From Candidatus Heimdallarchaeota archaeon (GTDB lineage: Archaea; Asgardarchaeota; Heimdallarchaeia; Hodarchaeales; Hodarchaeaceae): 64,000 nucleotides of DNA. The notes under the pieces are model-generated. The model was given only the letters and a program-made list of their open reading frames with translations, did not search any database and was not told where the DNA came from. Position 1 is the stretch's first letter. Each line of letters starts with the position of its first letter. A program made the position numbers and the translations under genes. The stretch is from assembly GCA_011364965.1 (NCBI GenBank), contig RDOB01000007.1, positions 62,335 to 126,334 of the forward strand, written 5' to 3'. Shown one piece after another: positions 44,394 to 53,033 of the stretch.

Positions 44394-45900
44394 TTATACC
44401 AGCTTCTTGCGACTTCTGTAATTTAGAAGGATTATAAGAAGAATAAATATTAGAAGAAACAATATTCCCTCCAAAAAATAGAGAGGTTCCTCCGAGAAAG
44501 GAGGAATGATTGTAGGGGAACAAGAACAAAGGAAGAAAATATTTATACACGGAAAAGAATAAGAATTTTGAGCTTCTCCAGGAATTTGATAAGCAGAATC
44601 TATAATTCCATCATTATTATTATCAATTGCGATCCAGTCATCCCAGTAATTGCAATAAAAAGAGTTATTAGTACCATCATCATATCCCTGAACAGGGTTA
44701 CTCAAAAAAGCGTAGAAACAGATTATATTATTACTAGAAAGAGAATCAATAAATTTACCTGGATCAGTACTATTGACAATAATATTATCAGAAATTAGGT
44801 TTACGCTAGAGGAACGTAAAATTATCCCTTCATTCTTACTTGTATTAACAATGTTCTCTCTTAAAAGGCATTCATTAGAATTTAAGAGTTGAATACCCCT
44901 ATAAGTACACAAGAGAGAATTATAGGTGACATTGATTTGCGTGCAAAATAGAATCGTGACACCATAAGAATTACACAAACTCTGATTTGTAATTGCGATA
45001 TTCACACAATTTAATAGGACAATCTGCCCCATATTGGGTGGAACAGAAAGATTAGCTTACTCCAGCCAGAAAATGATTAGCTGACCATTAAAATAATTAT
45101 GACAAACTTCAAGCTGACGAATAAAGGAAAGATCGGAACCTAAGATCATAAATCCACTCTGAAGGAACTTATTATTCCGAATCGTATTATTTGCTGAAAG
45201 TGAAAGATAAAGCCCTAAAATGTCATTAAAAAGAAATGAATTGTTAGTAATCAAGTTATAATGGCATACTAGAAGGTTAAAACAACAATTACCACACCCT
45301 GATATTGTATTATTGATAAAAGAAAGATTAGATGCTAAGGTGGCACTTACACCAATATAAAAAGCCTCAGAAACTAAATTATCCATAATAGTAATATTAT
45401 ATCAAGGTCTTAGCTCAATCCCTACAAAACATTCAATGAAAGAATTATTGCAAATCAACGAATTATTGACCCCAATAAGGTTCACATCAGTGCTACTATA
45501 AGAGAGATCAAAATAATTAGAAGAAAGTCCACCATGAGTGCAATTCGCAAGATAGACCCCAGGATGTTCTCCAAAATAACACTGGAAGAAGTGAAAATAG
45601 ATATCCACATTCACCAAGGTTATCATATTGCCAGAACCGTCTGAAAAAGTTCAATCCTGAATAAGAATAGGAGCTTTAGCAGAACCATTACCTTACCAGC
45701 CTTCAATTTGCGCCATGGATATGAAATAATCATTACCATTGATAAATATGGTAGAATGAACTTGATAGGAAGAGGAGGAAGATTGAGTAAGGGTAGATCT
45801 TTTTAAAAAAGGAAAATATTGAGTTGAGAACGCTGAAGAATGGATAAGAGATAAAAAAAATGACAAGAACGAGAAAACAAGAGATATAGAAACGTTTCAT
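44394..45900 (-). pseudogene. Fragmented NosD/parallel beta-helix surface protein
   Basis: Consecutive fragments (44394-45032, 45057-45386, 45402-45626) with GI.L..S..N.I..N repeats, NYWDDW...DNNNDG and a C-terminal TM; a signal-peptide-like start at 45900; broken by stops and frameshifts. Confidence 0.75.
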
Positions 45901-46114: not shown

Positions 46115-46894
46115 TTGGCATCCACGATAGATAATGATCACAGCGAGCCTTCTCAAACTGGAAAAGGACATCCATTAGTATTATTACATGGCTATTCAGG
46201 AAATTCTGAGATACACTGGAAAAATCAAATAAATAACTCTCTAATAAGAGCAGAATATCATATAATTACTCCTAATATGTTTAGTTTTACGAATAAAAAC
46301 CGAATGGAAATTCAAACAAAAACAAATTCGACGAATGAGGTTAAAAAGCTTAGATATTTCTTAAAAAAGCATATAAAAATATCTAAACCCTTATTTTTAG
46401 TTGGATACTCTATCGGAGGAGCACTTGCATTAACATACGCCTCATTCTTTCCTCAAGATGTACTAGGAATAATTCTTGTAAGTCCACTTGCGTTCTTGAA
46501 TTCCTTTATTCCTACTGTCCCCACACTTCCGAAACGGACCATTACTAAAAATTTCACTAGAAAAGAAAGCTCATTTTACAAAGCAACTTGGGTTGTTTTC
46601 AAACGTATTATCAAAACTCTGTCTACTCTGAATCTGAAATTAAATGATGAAAGAGTAGTGAAATCCCTAAAAAACTTGCATCTACTAAATATTCCAATTT
46701 TACTCACATACGGTCTGGAAGATAGCATTAATCCATCACAAAACTATGAATTATTAAAAAAATATCTACCATTGAGGACTCAAATTGTCCCATTCCAAGG
46801 AGATCATAGTTTTCATGATACAGAACCTGAAAAATTTAATGAAGTCCTCTTATCGTTCTGTAAGGATGTTCGCAGCAAAAAAAACAAACATTAA
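46115..46894 (+). CDS. Alpha/beta hydrolase (lipase/esterase-like)
   Basis: LLHGYSG, GYSIGG nucleophile elbow, GLED acid, GDH His. Confidence 0.88.
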   Translation: MASTIDNDHSEPSQTGKGHPLVLLHGYSGNSEIHWKNQINNSLIRAEYHIITPNMFSFTNKNRMEIQTKTNSTNEVKKLRYFLKKHIKISKPLFLVGYSIGGALALTYASFFPQDVLGIILVSPLAFLNSFIPTVPTLPKRTITKNFTRKESSFYKATWVVFKRIIKTLSTLNLKLNDERVVKSLKNLHLLNIPILLTYGLEDSINPSQNYELLKKYLPLRTQIVPFQGDHSFHDTEPEKFNEVLLSFCKDVRSKKNKH

Positions 46895-47034
46895 TAAGGG
46901 GTTGAAGTTCACTTCCGTAATCATTCCTTTTTTCAAGGTAAGATAAGCTTTTAGAGATAAGCTATTTAAATCTGAATTGATCGGAATTCGGATAAACTAG
47001 AAATCCTCAAGAAAAGTATAAGCTAGAGAAGTAA

Positions 47035-48066
47035 GTGGTATATGAGATGTCAGAGGATGATTTTACTCTAATGGATTATAAGATATATCCAGAGGTCATT
47101 CTCCCCTCTGAACTCGTTTTCATGTTGCAAAACTCCTTAAAAAAACTAGAACAATATCGTAGCTTATTAAATTCCATAAATGTTTTCCCAGTGCCTGATG
47201 GGGATACAGGAACCAATTTGGTGCAAACATTCCGATCAATTATTCATGAACTTTCGAATGTTGGCATCAAAAATAATTGTGGGGAAATTATTTCGTTTGC
47301 ATCGCAAGGTGCATTCACCAATTGCGCGGGAAGTTCAGGAAGTATTTTATCCGAGTATTTTAGGGGACTAGAAATAGCTTGGAAAGACCAAAAGACGCTC
47401 AGCAATCATGATCTGGTGACAGGCTTAAAAAAAGGAGCAGAATTTGCATATAAAGCAGTAGTACGACCTCGGGAAGGAACAATATTAACAGTCGCGCGAC
47501 AGATTGGAGAATCAGCAGCAATCCTAGAGGAAACAGTAACAACCCCATTTGAATTACTATTGCTAATTTTTGAAGATGCTAAGGTCGCTTTAAAAAATAC
47601 CCGAAATATACTCAAAGAAGCAAAGAAAGCAGGAGTTGTTGACGCGGGAGCAATGGGATTAGTAATCATGTTTGAAGGATTTCTCGAAACATTGAAGGAT
47701 ATTTATGCAGCTAAAATCAGCATTACTCCCGTAAGTGAAGATATCAGTGATTATCTAAATCCTGAATTGCCCACGGACGAAATCCAGAAAGAATATGAAG
47801 TAATAATACAGATAACAGCATTAAAATATCCAATAAGTGTATTAATCGCAGAATTGCACCAACTTGGGAAAGCACTCGTTATAAATAAAACAAATCAGGA
47901 AGCAGTAATAAAAGTCCATATTCATTGTAAGGATCCAAAAGAGGTAATAAAAAAGATAGGACATTTAGCAGAATCAGTTATTATCATATCGATACAATCA
48001 ATACACGAACAGGCCATGGAATTTATGAGAATATCAAATCAGGATATAGGAGAGACACCTGGTTGA
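47035..48066 (+). CDS. fakA: DAK2-domain fatty acid kinase subunit A-like protein
   Basis: INVFPVPDGDTGTNL, GSSGSILS, AYKAVVRPREGTILTV, GVVDAGA, KVHIH. Confidence 0.85.
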   Translation: MVYEMSEDDFTLMDYKIYPEVILPSELVFMLQNSLKKLEQYRSLLNSINVFPVPDGDTGTNLVQTFRSIIHELSNVGIKNNCGEIISFASQGAFTNCAGSSGSILSEYFRGLEIAWKDQKTLSNHDLVTGLKKGAEFAYKAVVRPREGTILTVARQIGESAAILEETVTTPFELLLLIFEDAKVALKNTRNILKEAKKAGVVDAGAMGLVIMFEGFLETLKDIYAAKISITPVSEDISDYLNPELPTDEIQKEYEVIIQITALKYPISVLIAELHQLGKALVINKTNQEAVIKVHIHCKDPKEVIKKIGHLAESVIIISIQSIHEQAMEFMRISNQDIGETPG

Positions 48067-48950
48067 AAATAGGTATAGTTACGGACTCTATGAGCGATCT
48101 GCCAGCTCAAATAGCTGAAAAATATCAAATAAAGATAATCCCAGGAGATATCTATATTAACGAGGACAGGTACAAGAGTGGAATCGATTTAGATACAGAA
48201 GAATTAACAAAAATAATAACCGACAAAAATAAATCTTTTAGAACAGGAGCACCGTCACCCGGGGAGTATTATACTGCTTATAAAGAAATTCTAAATGAAG
48301 TAGACCTCATAATTAGCTTACATCCGCCAAGAAGGCAATCTGGAGCCTTGAATTCAGCTAACATCGCCCTACAAAGGGTTCCAGATGCCTCAAGAATAAA
48401 AATATTCGAAACGGGGGTAGCAACTCTGGGACTAGGGTTAACAGCCATTGCGACCGCTATAACAGCGCAAAAAACAAGCAATCAAACCGAGCTATTGACT
48501 CAAGTCCAAAAATACTGTGATCAAATTCAAGTCATAGGAACATTAGATTCGCTAAAATATGTAAGTAAAACAGGACGAATCAGTATAAAAATAGCCACAA
48601 TGATGGCAGATGCATTATCCATCAAACCAATCCTAGTAATGAGAAATTCAGATATCATCCTAGCAGAAAGACCCAGAAAAAGATCAACTGCAATACACAC
48701 AATAGTAAATATGCTATCAGAAACTTTGGATAGAGAGTTAATCCCCTCAATCATTGGCATAAGCAACTTCCTATGTGAAGCAGATGCTCAACTGATGAGG
48801 CAGGAAATAGAAAAAGAATTTCCCAAATATCTAATTATCGAAGGGAATGCAGATCCCATGATTGCAGCAAACACTGGGCCTGGGTTATTATTAGTGGCTT
48901 GTTTTGCAGCTGCAAATAAGCAAATTGGAGGTAGAAAAATTAATTTTTGA
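48063..48950 (+). CDS. DegV-family fatty-acid-binding protein (FakB-like)
   Basis: IGIVTDSMSDL, TGAPSPG, SLKYVSKTGRI, LSIKPIL, ANTGPG. Confidence 0.9.
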   Translation: MKIGIVTDSMSDLPAQIAEKYQIKIIPGDIYINEDRYKSGIDLDTEELTKIITDKNKSFRTGAPSPGEYYTAYKEILNEVDLIISLHPPRRQSGALNSANIALQRVPDASRIKIFETGVATLGLGLTAIATAITAQKTSNQTELLTQVQKYCDQIQVIGTLDSLKYVSKTGRISIKIATMMADALSIKPILVMRNSDIILAERPRKRSTAIHTIVNMLSETLDRELIPSIIGISNFLCEADAQLMRQEIEKEFPKYLIIEGNADPMIAANTGPGLLLVACFAAANKQIGGRKINF

Positions 48951-49593
48951 ATTACTGTTAGGTGGAGGAATAGGATATCTCATAGGCTCTGTATTTATCA
49001 CATATATTTGGGGGCAAATAAAGGGAATTGACCTAACACAAGAAGGAACAGGACAGTTAGGCGCTACAAACGCGGGGCGGTTACTAGGCTGGCCATTATT
49101 GATAATAGGAGGGATATTTGATATTCTAAAGGCATATACTGCTCTAGTTCTAATTTACACTGTTTTTGGACTCTGGCTTAAAGTAAACTATCTGGAAATA
49201 ATGTTAGCCAGTGGAAGCATAGGAATCCTGATAGGCCATATAAAATCCATCTGGATATGGATTGAAAAACATCAATGGCACGGTGGAAAAGGAGGTGCAC
49301 CACTAGGTGGGATACTCCTATTCTATTCATGGCAAACGTTTCTCTTCCTCTATATTGGCCTGATGACCTTGATGCAAATCATCAAAAAAATCATAACAAA
49401 GGAAAAAACATATGAAAACTTCATAACAAATAGCGTCGTTTTTGTGTGTATCCCCCCTATAATTTTCCTGTTCACCAGTAATATCTTCTATTTTGGATTA
49501 ATACTACTTCTCGAAGGGATAATAATATATAGCGAGAGGGAAAAACTTTGGAGCATAATCAAGCAAGTTAAAAACCCCCCTCCTACAAAATAG
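48904..49593 (+). CDS. plsY: Acyl-phosphate:glycerol-3-phosphate acyltransferase PlsY-like (start uncertain)
   Basis: GYLIGS, GTGQLGATNAGR (motif 1), DILKA, GHIKS, GGKGGA (motif 2); multi-TM. Confidence 0.8.
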   Translation: MQLQISKLEVEKLIFELLLGGGIGYLIGSVFITYIWGQIKGIDLTQEGTGQLGATNAGRLLGWPLLIIGGIFDILKAYTALVLIYTVFGLWLKVNYLEIMLASGSIGILIGHIKSIWIWIEKHQWHGGKGGAPLGGILLFYSWQTFLFLYIGLMTLMQIIKKIITKEKTYENFITNSVVFVCIPPIIFLFTSNIFYFGLILLLEGIIIYSEREKLWSIIKQVKNPPPTK

Positions 49594-49691: not shown

Positions 49692-50330
49692 ATGTCGTCG
49701 GGAAAAACAATGAGCTTTTTTGAGATTAAAGACGATTTATATAAAGTCTGTCTGATCGGGGACGGGGGTGTGGGGAAAACGGCTATAGTAGAGCAACTCC
49801 TAGGAAAAGGCTTCTCCTCAACCTATAACCTAACAATAGGAACAAATATCTGTACATGTGCAGTTGAAATTGATGAGCGAAGGATCAAATACCAAATTTG
49901 GGATCTAGCGGGACAACAACGTTTCGAATTTGTCCGAGCGTCTTTTTATCGCGGATCACACGCTATAGTAATGGTATTTGACGTTACCAACCCAAATTCC
50001 TTTATAAATTTACGTGAGTGGAAATTTGAAGTTCTTCAGAACCTAAGAAAAAATCCTCCCAACATTCCAGTCTTATTATTAGGAAATAAATGCGATTTAC
50101 AAGAAAAACAAGTGATTGATTCATTAACGATAGAAAATTTTAGAGAAGAACTGAAGTTCGATTTTCAATCGGGAGAACCAGGGTTTCTATATACTAGCGC
50201 CCTCTCAGGGATGAACGTATTGGAAGCATTCGAAATCCTTGGCCATCAGTTATTGAAAAATAAGAAAGCAACCCCCTATCTAAATAGAGCACCAGATATA
50301 GTACCGGGGTCACTTGAAACAGTAGAATAA
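49692..50330 (+). CDS. Rab-like small GTPase
   Basis: GDGGVGKT, TIG, WDLAGQ, GNKCD, TSA. Confidence 0.92.
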   Translation: MSSGKTMSFFEIKDDLYKVCLIGDGGVGKTAIVEQLLGKGFSSTYNLTIGTNICTCAVEIDERRIKYQIWDLAGQQRFEFVRASFYRGSHAIVMVFDVTNPNSFINLREWKFEVLQNLRKNPPNIPVLLLGNKCDLQEKQVIDSLTIENFREELKFDFQSGEPGFLYTSALSGMNVLEAFEILGHQLLKNKKATPYLNRAPDIVPGSLETVE

Positions 50331-50390: not shown

Positions 50391-53033
50391 CTACTCCTCT
50401 TCCGAATAAGGACTTAAAATTCTTTCAGAATTGGAAGTATCCACATACTCCTCTTGAGGAGGAGATACAACGGTCGGAGGAGTCTTCTTCTTCGGAGCTT
50501 TACGGATACGATAAATAAGCAATATTAGAATTAAACCTAATGAAAAACCAAGGGTTTCAAGAGCATCTGAGATCATAGCAACGAGCAGGAGAATGGAAAA
50601 GGGATCACTTAGAATGACACTAAAAGGAAAGCTCGGAACCCCCAGAGGGATAAGTAATAGGAGATGTAAAGTACGTAGAAAAATCACGAACATCCCTAAA
50701 AGAAACAACCCAATCCGAATGAGGATTTTAGCTAGGCCAGATCCAGACATAATACGTCGAATCACAGAGGGAAAACTAGTATAAATCACCCAAGCAAAAA
50801 AAATACCTTGTAATTCAAAATACAGGCCATATAAAACAGATGTACTAATAAACGTCTCTTGACTAATCCAAGTAACCAGTTGATGCCACCAAGGGAGCTC
50901 AGAGAGTTGGATAAAGAAAAAAGTAGGATTTTCAACAAAAAAATAAGAAAGGAGGAAATTAAAGAGGTTAGAAATAACCCGATACAGCTCAAGGAGAAGG
51001 CTAATACCTAAAATTATGGTTTTATAATTCCAGTGGCTTTTAGACGCATCCAAAGGGCGAAAAATGTTACGTACCGAGGTACCGCCTGCAAAATTAAGAA
51101 GAAACATATAACAAATAAGAGGAAGACTAAAAACAATAAAAAGAAGCTCTAAAATTCCTAACTGAGATAAAAGGATAAATTGATTAGGAGAAGGAGGAGT
51201 AGAAAGATCTGTAGCAAAAAAAGTCTGAAAAAGAGTTAAAAGATCAGGAAGAAAAGTAGAATTAGAGATAATGGGTTCAAAAAAGATAAGAAGTTGCACA
51301 AAAAAAAGCCAAAGAGCAAAATAAATCCCAAAAATAATAGAGATTTTCATAAGAAAAAGAAAACCACGTCGAATCCATGATCGGTGAGGGGGCATTGATG
51401 GAGAACGAATGCGATCACGAGTCCAGAAGAAGAACGATAAGAGAGAACCAAGGAAAATAAGCGTAATCGCAAGGAAGAAGAGTCGATATCCAAGATCCAC
51501 AAAACTCTTAGCTGTTAAAAATGATACCTGATTCAAAAATTTTTCCCGACTGAGTTCACTAAACAAAATCACCATGAAAAAAAGCACGAAACTAGAAAAA
51601 AGCCACTCAATAAACCCCACTTGGACAACAATTGGAGGAGAAACCTTAGGAAGAGACTCAGAAATCACATCCTCTAAACTTTCCTGTGCTAATTGTGCCT
51701 GCAGTTTTTGATGCTTCTTAGTCAAACGACGATTTTCCCAACGCAGAACAAGAAAGAACATAAACGGTAACCCAAGAAAGATGAGGAAATTGATGGATAA
51801 AGATAAAACGGGTAAATAGGAAGCAATAGGGGTATCATCAATCCAAAGGGAGTAAAAAGAACTACTAGAAAAACCCGTGTTGATCTGAATTACCAAAAGC
51901 TCAACAGCTAAGGGAATTGGAATTTCTACAACATAGGGAAAAGCGTTAGGAAGATAAGCAGAGGAACTAAAAGCTCTAGCACCTGAACCTGCCATGAAAT
52001 TCGCGAAAGTAATCTCTTTCGTGAGATTCACGCGGCCTTCGAGATCAAATATCTGAATACAAACTCCTGGAAGATGAGTTTGAATAAAAACCGTACTAGT
52101 AGTTCGAATCGCTGAACTAAACAGATACACATCCGTTTGATCCTCTAAACCCGTGACTAGTTCGCTAACAGTTCCGATAATCCATGAACGCCCCTTAATA
52201 TGAGTATGAGCGATTAAAGCGGTCTCTAGATCATCAGGGGTATCAGTAGCTAAATCACCAAATTGTAATGAGGCACCCATTAAACTATTAGTCGGTAACA
52301 AAGGATTTGTATCCAATAAAAATTCAAGATAGTCAGATAGACCGTCATTGTCCGAATCAGGAGACAAATCAGCACGAACAGTGAACTGATAGTACAAACC
52401 CGCCCAATTTCCTGCAAGGTCACTCGCATATAGGTACAAATCATGACGACCCTCTTCCCGAGGAAACACGAGAAGATAGGGTTCTTCTAAACTTTGATTG
52501 CCTCCAGTATCCCACTGGTAAATCACACGATCAAGAAAAGGTTCATCAATCAGAAGCTGAAATAGAGTATCAGGAATCTGTATACTGTTATTCATAATAG
52601 GATCTAGGAAAATAAGAGGAGGAGAATCATCAGTAATAAAGTGGAAATGTTTATACTCCCAGGTATCAGCAACATCACGCGCATAGACATGAAGAATATG
52701 AGGGCCGTCACCTAAAGGTAAAGTAACGACATAGGGGGAAAAAAATGTCATATTAGGCTGAAAATCCCAGTGAAACGTGACCTCAGATAAAGAAATATTC
52801 CAAATAGTTAAATGGATTTCCGTACCAGATCGAAGAATCGAATTATTAGCAGGTGCGTCTAGAAAAATAGAATCTTCAGTAACTGAAAGAATCTTAAACT
52901 CCAGTTGGCTAGTTAAATCTCTGAGAGGAGAATAAGAGTCCTCTGCGGGTTGAAATAATTCGAGATGGAAGAAAAAAGGAGAAGAAAGCAGGAGGAATAC
53001 AAACAATAACATAACTACAGGTTTTTTCACCAA
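50391..53033 (-). CDS. Large membrane protein: extracellular Ig-like repeats, Ca-binding motif, multi-TM C-terminus
   Basis: Signal peptide, two related G.H.L..YA.D repeats, DSDNDGLSD..E, then many hydrophobic helices. Confidence 0.7.
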   Translation of the reverse strand: MVKKPVVMLLFVFLLLSSPFFFHLELFQPAEDSYSPLRDLTSQLEFKILSVTEDSIFLDAPANNSILRSGTEIHLTIWNISLSEVTFHWDFQPNMTFFSPYVVTLPLGDGPHILHVYARDVADTWEYKHFHFITDDSPPLIFLDPIMNNSIQIPDTLFQLLIDEPFLDRVIYQWDTGGNQSLEEPYLLVFPREEGRHDLYLYASDLAGNWAGLYYQFTVRADLSPDSDNDGLSDYLEFLLDTNPLLPTNSLMGASLQFGDLATDTPDDLETALIAHTHIKGRSWIIGTVSELVTGLEDQTDVYLFSSAIRTTSTVFIQTHLPGVCIQIFDLEGRVNLTKEITFANFMAGSGARAFSSSAYLPNAFPYVVEIPIPLAVELLVIQINTGFSSSSFYSLWIDDTPIASYLPVLSLSINFLIFLGLPFMFFLVLRWENRRLTKKHQKLQAQLAQESLEDVISESLPKVSPPIVVQVGFIEWLFSSFVLFFMVILFSELSREKFLNQVSFLTAKSFVDLGYRLFFLAITLIFLGSLLSFFFWTRDRIRSPSMPPHRSWIRRGFLFLMKISIIFGIYFALWLFFVQLLIFFEPIISNSTFLPDLLTLFQTFFATDLSTPPSPNQFILLSQLGILELLFIVFSLPLICYMFLLNFAGGTSVRNIFRPLDASKSHWNYKTIILGISLLLELYRVISNLFNFLLSYFFVENPTFFFIQLSELPWWHQLVTWISQETFISTSVLYGLYFELQGIFFAWVIYTSFPSVIRRIMSGSGLAKILIRIGLFLLGMFVIFLRTLHLLLLIPLGVPSFPFSVILSDPFSILLLVAMISDALETLGFSLGLILILLIYRIRKAPKKKTPPTVVSPPQEEYVDTSNSERILSPYSEEE

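Follow-up and report, generated by a model that had tools for sequence, protein, structure and literature searches.

A FakA-DegV-PlsY gene cassette in Hodarchaeales-type Asgard archaea, a candidate module for activating and esterifying free fatty acids

Introduction

The closest described counterparts of the genes treated here are the fatty-acid kinase systems of Firmicutes (S. aureus, S. suis and YloV/DegV of B. subtilis; PDB 7w7h, 7rm7 and 4x9x), in which a FakA kinase is encoded next to a DegV-fold binder (FakB), and the membrane acyltransferase PlsY of Aquifex aeolicus (aaPlsY; PDB 5xj5-5xj9). Homologues of plsY and plsC in Asgard archaea were described by Villanueva 2017, Coleman 2019 (PMC6431249) and Manoharan 2019 (PMC6737245), who dealt with the same family, the same superphylum and the same question of ester lipids; in these papers plsY stands as an orphan without an acyl donor (no PlsX), and DegV, FakA and an altered pocket go unmentioned. 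Since 2017, archaeal plsY has been cited as a hint that the relatives of eukaryotes might have lipids of a bacterial type, and no acyl donor is known for it because archaea lack PlsX. Here, we analysed a 64,000-nt stretch of contig RDOB01000007.1 from a Candidatus Heimdallarchaeota archaeon (hereafter the window, to whose numbering all positions refer unless another locus is named), in which a gene for a PlsY-family acyltransferase overlaps a gene for a DegV/FakB-like protein that in turn overlaps a gene for a FakA-like kinase. Our literature search found no paper tying FakA or DegV to an archaeal PlsY. Asgard plsY itself is already published; what we add is its linkage to the Fak genes, a fusion of kinase and acyltransferase, a both-or-neither distribution, a reading of the pocket signature in the light of aaPlsY mutants and a genome inventory for lipid synthesis.

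Results

Gene order and coupling

All four genes of the locus are co-oriented on the plus strand. A gene for an alpha/beta-fold serine hydrolase and candidate esterase/lipase, hydA (46115..46894, 259 aa), is followed after a gap of ~140-150 nt by the gene for the truncated FakA-like kinase, consisting of the Dak2 N domain and the FakA middle domain (47035..48066; the 343-aa open reading frame (ORF) probably starts at ATG 47047, which gives 339 aa), by the gene for the putative fatty-acid-binding DegV/FakB-like protein (48063..48950, 295 aa) and by that for the PlsY-family integral membrane acyltransferase with a remodelled acceptor pocket (48904..49593). This arrangement, overlapping DAK2/FakA-like, DegV and PlsY-like genes behind a co-oriented serine hydrolase, had been proposed in an earlier sequence-only reading and is confirmed by the ORFs and their Pfam and NCBIfam matches. 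The FakA and DegV genes overlap by 4 nt, with the letters TTGA holding both the stop of the one and the start of the other and with a Shine-Dalgarno-like GGAGAG upstream (48049..48054). Between the DegV and PlsY-like genes the overlap is 8 to 47 nt long, according to which start codon is taken; the non-canonical ATT at 48943 is probably the start, because the orthologue in Ca. Hodarchaeum mangrovi is annotated from ATT and a Shine-Dalgarno-like GGAGGT (48927..48932) precedes it by ~10 nt, with TTG 48925 as the alternative. A start at ATT 48943 leaves an 8-nt overlap with the DegV stop, as in the relatives.

We consider it fairly likely that these genes form an accessory cassette, native to the Asgard lineage, by which free fatty acids are activated and esterified. 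The DegV protein would bind a free fatty acid, possibly freed from an ester by the adjacent hydrolase, the two-domain FakA would phosphorylate the DegV-bound carboxylate with ATP-Mg to an acyl-phosphate, and the PlsY-like membrane enzyme would move the acyl group to a phosphorylated alcohol. Gene identity, coupling, conservation and residue patterns are direct observations; the chemistry is our inference.

Kinase and binding protein

The kinase matches the Pfam models Dak2 (115 bits) and FakA-like_M (33 bits); in NCBIfam it reaches 232 bits with YloV and 165 bits with FakA_VfrB, under the respective cut-offs of 396 and 975. The sequence NVFPVPDGDTGTN of its Dak2 N domain can be aligned to FakA of S. 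suis (7w7h) and FakA_N of S. aureus (7rm7), and with the Firmicute proteins it shares the Dak2-type ATP-Mg domain, the ligands and the HxH motif. The equivalents of the ATP-(Mg)2 ligands Asn32, Asp38, Asp40 and Thr41 are invariant across 16 sequences, the N-x5-DGDTG motif is kept, and the HxH of the middle domain (the His282/His284 motif) is present as VHIH. Identity to the best bacterial FakA is ~36%. As in Firmicutes, the binder is a separate DegV-fold protein with Thr, Ser and Arg carboxylate ligands, encoded by an adjacent, translationally coupled gene; unlike the Firmicute genes, the Asgard Fak module shares an operon with its acyltransferase.

The DegV protein, the only one in the genome, has a full-length DegV domain that scores 164 bits with PF02645 (cut-off 27) and 193 bits with TIGR00762, over the cut-off of 99.7. 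Of the carboxylate ligands (Thr61, Ser93, Arg170 and His264 in S. suis numbering) it retains T61, S93 and R172, and it also has the arginines that dock FakB on FakA, R205 and R207 included. From these residues it is a credible putative fatty-acid binder. The predicted complex of the short FakA with DegV scored 0.27, where the mark is 0.32, and counts neither for nor against the pairing.

The pair also resembles the dihydroxyacetone kinase DhaL-DhaK, where a Dak2-domain nucleotide subunit acts on the substrate of a separate EDD-fold subunit, and a truncated FakA with DegV amounts to a return to such a two-part layout. However, the binder is DegV and not DhaK, the FakA middle domain is present, and the kinase scores 33 bits with DhaL models versus 232 bits with YloV. 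Elsewhere in the survey, the genomes of one family (f4) each hold two Dak2-only ORFs of ~215-245 aa without the middle domain, which may be DhaL-like.

The PlsY-like protein

The acyltransferase scores 79 bits with PF02660 (G3P_acyltransf; gathering cut-off 24) and 64.1 bits with TIGR00023, under the equivalog cut-off of 137.2. Its AlphaFold 2 model has a mean confidence (pLDDT) of 84.9, and Foldseek matched it solely to PlsY structures (5xj5-5xj8, TM-scores 0.68/0.79). At ~20-30% identity to the Aquifex enzyme, it has the same multi-helix membrane fold, and T41, N42, R45, H92 and the GGKG loop with K104 are conserved. Among these, the acyl-phosphate site, T41 (Ser or Thr), H92 and the GGKG loop, is invariant in 16 members of the Asgard clade. 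In contrast to aaPlsY, the RYSSLAS region (S142) is replaced, and the clade has two insertions, one of 10 residues that contains Y(D/E)NFxTN and one of 5 residues ahead of GGKG.

Linkage in relatives

The linkage seen at the one locus extends to its relatives: the short FakA, DegV and PlsY-like genes occur in the same order and overlapping in every related locus with enough contig. Nine of the 21 species in the GTDB family of the window organism have the PlsY-like gene, and eight of these nine also have the short FakA, the ninth having its PlsY-like gene on a 2-kb contig; the cassette is an accessory module whose genes occur as a set. A fused form is found in a sister family within the order: one protein of 585/587 aa (ORFs of 585-602 aa; G078:C472, L029 3598-5355; G079:C247, L030 2717-4513) joins PlsY, Dak2 and FakA_M, and the DegV gene comes next, overlapping it by 4 nt. 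As comparative evidence for joint action of kinase and acyltransferase, this fusion is strong. A short FakA, DegV and a PlsY with canonical motifs are also present in a further family of the class.

The hydrolase is a looser companion of the other three genes. HydA matches Abhydrolase_1 (73 bits) and has the nucleophile elbow GYSIGG, with a probable catalytic Asp in GLEDS and His in GDHSFH; it reaches no equivalog among the NCBIfam models, and its language-model look-alikes fall in clusters automatically named 'Lipase 1 family', which we take as a lead only. An orthologue of 61% identity holds the same upstream position in Ca. Hodarchaeum mangrovi. In a second subclade a non-orthologous alpha/beta hydrolase (DUF7379/DUF676-like) lies just downstream of the triad, and in a third no hydrolase was found beside it. 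As the hydrolases flanking the triad in two subclades are not orthologous and one subclade has none, we rejected the hydrolase as a single conserved fourth gene.

The search of the phylum returned a further PlsY-like domain (30-38% identity) within ORFs of ~403 aa in 31 of the 135 genomes of family f20, some of them closed (e.g., G187:C1:1084625-1084978); no FakA-like match was found in these 31 genomes.

Relationship to bacterial homologues

The cassette is native to a Heimdall/Hod-type Asgard lineage, in keeping with the archaeal setting that had been assumed for it, and the close homologues of all four genes are Asgard. For FakA these are ~10 short proteins (335-367 aa, 42-58% identity), and the next matches are full-length FakA proteins of Clostridia at ~36% identity. 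The PlsY-like protein has ~20 Asgard clusters at 47-60% identity, beyond which the E-value drops to 1e-8, and a profile of its clade reached 5 of 1.84 billion cluster representatives at E 1e-30. DegV shows the same pattern of close relatives in Asgard only. Among named organisms, Ca. Hodarchaeum mangrovi is the nearest. A tree built on the FakA N and middle domains splits 18 Asgard sequences from 54 sampled bacterial ones, with two short unassigned sequences on the bacterial side, by a branch with an approximate likelihood ratio support (SH-aLRT) of 97, and the close Asgard clade is monophyletic (SH-aLRT 96). The bacteria in the tree were the best Firmicute hits, and DPANN were left out; because this bacterial sampling is narrow, we name no donor for a transfer.

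Genome inventory for lipid synthesis

The genome is 87% complete, which bounds every genome-wide absence given here. A true GlpK is present (705 bits, cut-off 590), so that sn-glycerol-3-phosphate (G3P) can be made from glycerol, and so are a GlpD-type G3P dehydrogenase, two genes for sn-glycerol-1-phosphate (G1P) dehydrogenase-like proteins (G1PDH-like), CarS and seven UbiA-family genes. A gene for a PlsC-like acyltransferase is convergent with an adjoining gene for an SCP2 lipid carrier (G000:C11, L040 5782-7257). Of the enzymes which the sequence-only reading had suggested looking for elsewhere in the genome, a PlsC-like protein and GlpK were thus found and GpsA was not; a weak GpsA match proved to be a 3-hydroxyacyl-CoA dehydrogenase. 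Both glycerol phosphates are plausibly available, and the genome context therefore does not decide the acceptor. The same reading had supposed a route without acyl carrier protein (ACP) or PlsX, and neither was found in the genome. Since PlsX, ACP and FakA_C were all not found, Fak is the only visible source of acyl-phosphate. GGGPS (PF01884) was likewise not found in the genome, also not by tblastn with the GGGPS of a relative; since the gene is present in 19 of 21 relatives, a gap in the assembly is the probable cause, rather than a loss of ether-lipid synthesis.

Flanking genes

Directly downstream of the cassette, on the plus strand, lies a gene for a Ras/Rab-family small GTPase (49692-50330; Ras, 138 bits). 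On the minus strand, two adjoining NosD/beta-helix ORFs (44394-45386; 212 and 109 aa) are maybe one split or frameshifted gene, and an 880-aa protein (50391-53033) has a weak bacterial TSP3 repeat as its sole match.

Discussion

Several observations weigh against a cassette that activates and esterifies free fatty acids, and some of them concern the kinase. S. aureus FakA needs its middle-domain Cys (C240A lowers activity 200-fold), whereas this Cys240 is Glu in all ten close Asgard homologues, and of the Zn site of S. suis FakA (Cys240, His282, His284) the Asgard kinase keeps only HxH. The Cys is retained in other short FakAs of the Heimdall class and in the PlsY-kinase fusion proteins. As most members of the Glu clade carry a Cys immediately after HxH, their metal site may have been rebuilt. 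Furthermore, Firmicute FakA is a protein of ~550 aa with a C-terminal FakB-docking domain, PF13684, which is absent from the 343-aa Asgard kinase and from the whole genome (E 0.1). The S. aureus fragment FakA_NL (N+L), whose domain set is that of the short Asgard kinase, is nevertheless an active kinase in vitro with a Km for FakB that is ~10-fold higher (PMC9136124), and by this analogy the missing domain need not abolish kinase activity. The description of the pair as a Firmicute-type FakA/FakB holds for the gene identities, but not for the docking domain and the middle-domain Cys. In DegV, the His among the carboxylate ligands is Asn in the window protein and varies between Asn, His and Tyr in the Asgard clade; we rejected His to Asn as a clade-wide trait on account of this variation. 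To these points must be added that 12 of the 21 species of the family have neither the PlsY-like gene nor the short FakA, and that the lipid analysis of a cultured Lokiarchaeon, as cited in PMC13400652, gave archaeal lipids only.

The remaining points of this kind lie in the acceptor pocket of the PlsY-like protein. The substitutions S35T, N37Q, H177E and N180K are invariant in the clade, and the G3P pocket is thus not conserved; the earlier assignment as a standard G3P acyltransferase does not hold. In the phosphate clamp, R45 and K104 are kept and S35 and N180 are replaced (S35T, N180K; 2/4 retained), and H177E removes the ligand of the glycerol 2-OH. The resulting signature, T-Q-(S/T)-N-R...H...K...E-x-K, is exclusive to the Asgard clade among 170 family members compared, the others having S-N...H-x-N or close variants, while the PlsY domain of the fusion proteins shows yet another variant (T35, N37 and Asp at 177). 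In aaPlsY, where the mutated residues hold the phosphate and the 2-OH of G3P, S35T leaves 17% and N37Q 9.5% of the activity, with H177E 1.1% remains and the Km for G3P rises 30-fold, and N180A, N180D, N180H and N180Q each leave less than 5%, N180K being outside the mutant set (PMC5700162). Because the matching substitutions cripple G3P acylation there, the Asgard enzyme could, by analogy, be slow or be doing something else. With two clamp residues and the 2-OH ligand replaced and two insertions present, its handling of the acceptor probably differs from that of bacterial PlsY. A conserved donor site next to a rebuilt acceptor site points either to sn-G3P bound in a co-adapted pocket or to another acceptor, which could be sn-G1P or a different phospho-alcohol.

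Two specific versions of the chemistry deserve mention, although we consider each of them unlikely as stated. In the first, the remodelled PlsY of Hodarchaeales-type Asgard archaea would acylate sn-G1P or an ether lysolipid with acyl-phosphate from the minimal kinase. Lipids with ester or mixed ether/ester linkages on the archaeal backbone would result if this is true, and the lipid divide would be crossed in nature. The second, on which we are equally doubtful, is the standard bacterial route, in which acyl-phosphate from Fak is used by PlsY on sn-G3P to give lysophosphatidic acid, the PlsC-like enzyme makes phosphatidic acid, and bacterial-type ester phospholipids result. GlpK could supply the G3P, the PlsC-like enzyme is encoded, R45 and K104 of the clamp are in place, and bacterial PlsY is in any case tolerant as to the stereochemistry of the backbone, accepting both G1P and G3P in a 2026 study that also names Asgard plsY (PMC13400652). 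However, the four pocket substitutions are conserved, and three of them each strongly lower aaPlsY activity; the PlsY-like protein falls short of the equivalog cut-off, GpsA was not found, and the GlpD-type dehydrogenase suggests that G3P is mainly catabolic. Moreover, PlsC normally uses acyl-ACP or acyl-CoA, whereas ACP was not found, and the cassette is accessory in the family.

Rather improbable, in our view, is that the cassette activates another lipid carboxylate, such as an isoprenoid acid, or serves the detoxification or turnover of free fatty acids and not membrane building. The variable His ligand of DegV would fit such a role, as would the joint remodelling of kinase and acyltransferase, the accessory distribution and the presence of beta-oxidation-type enzymes such as the 3-hydroxyacyl-CoA dehydrogenase, but the fatty-acid carboxylate site retains T61, S93 and R172, and the tight coupling or fusion to a membrane acyltransferase argues for a membrane acceptor and not for catabolism. 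That the cassette stems from bacterial contamination, from a chimeric contig or from a recent transfer without a role in the archaeon is very unlikely: all three families are typically bacterial, and outside Asgard the best FakA hits are in Clostridia, but GC content is even throughout the cassette region, a Ras-family GTPase gene adjoins it, relatives carry the cassette on contigs of up to 410 kb, and the homology searches and the FakA tree set the Asgard proteins apart.

A native cassette for fatty-acid activation and esterification, which we continue to favour, is not evidence for bacterial membranes in these archaea. The direct bearing on eukaryogenesis that had been suggested for it is weak as well. 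PlsY has no eukaryotic homologues (PMC5700162), and in published trees the lipid genes of Asgard archaea and of eukaryotes are not specifically linked (PMC6431249); because the eukaryotic enzymes are not of the PlsY type, the cassette says nothing direct about where the lipid enzymes of eukaryotes came from. What the conserved and sometimes fused Fak-PlsY cassette would supply is the missing acyl donor for archaeal plsY, in the form of three small, clonable genes. As the changes in this clade hit residues that position glycerol phosphate, the choice between G3P, G1P and other acceptors becomes a concrete question, and knowing the acceptor would tell if ester lipids are made in these archaea and which backbone carries them.

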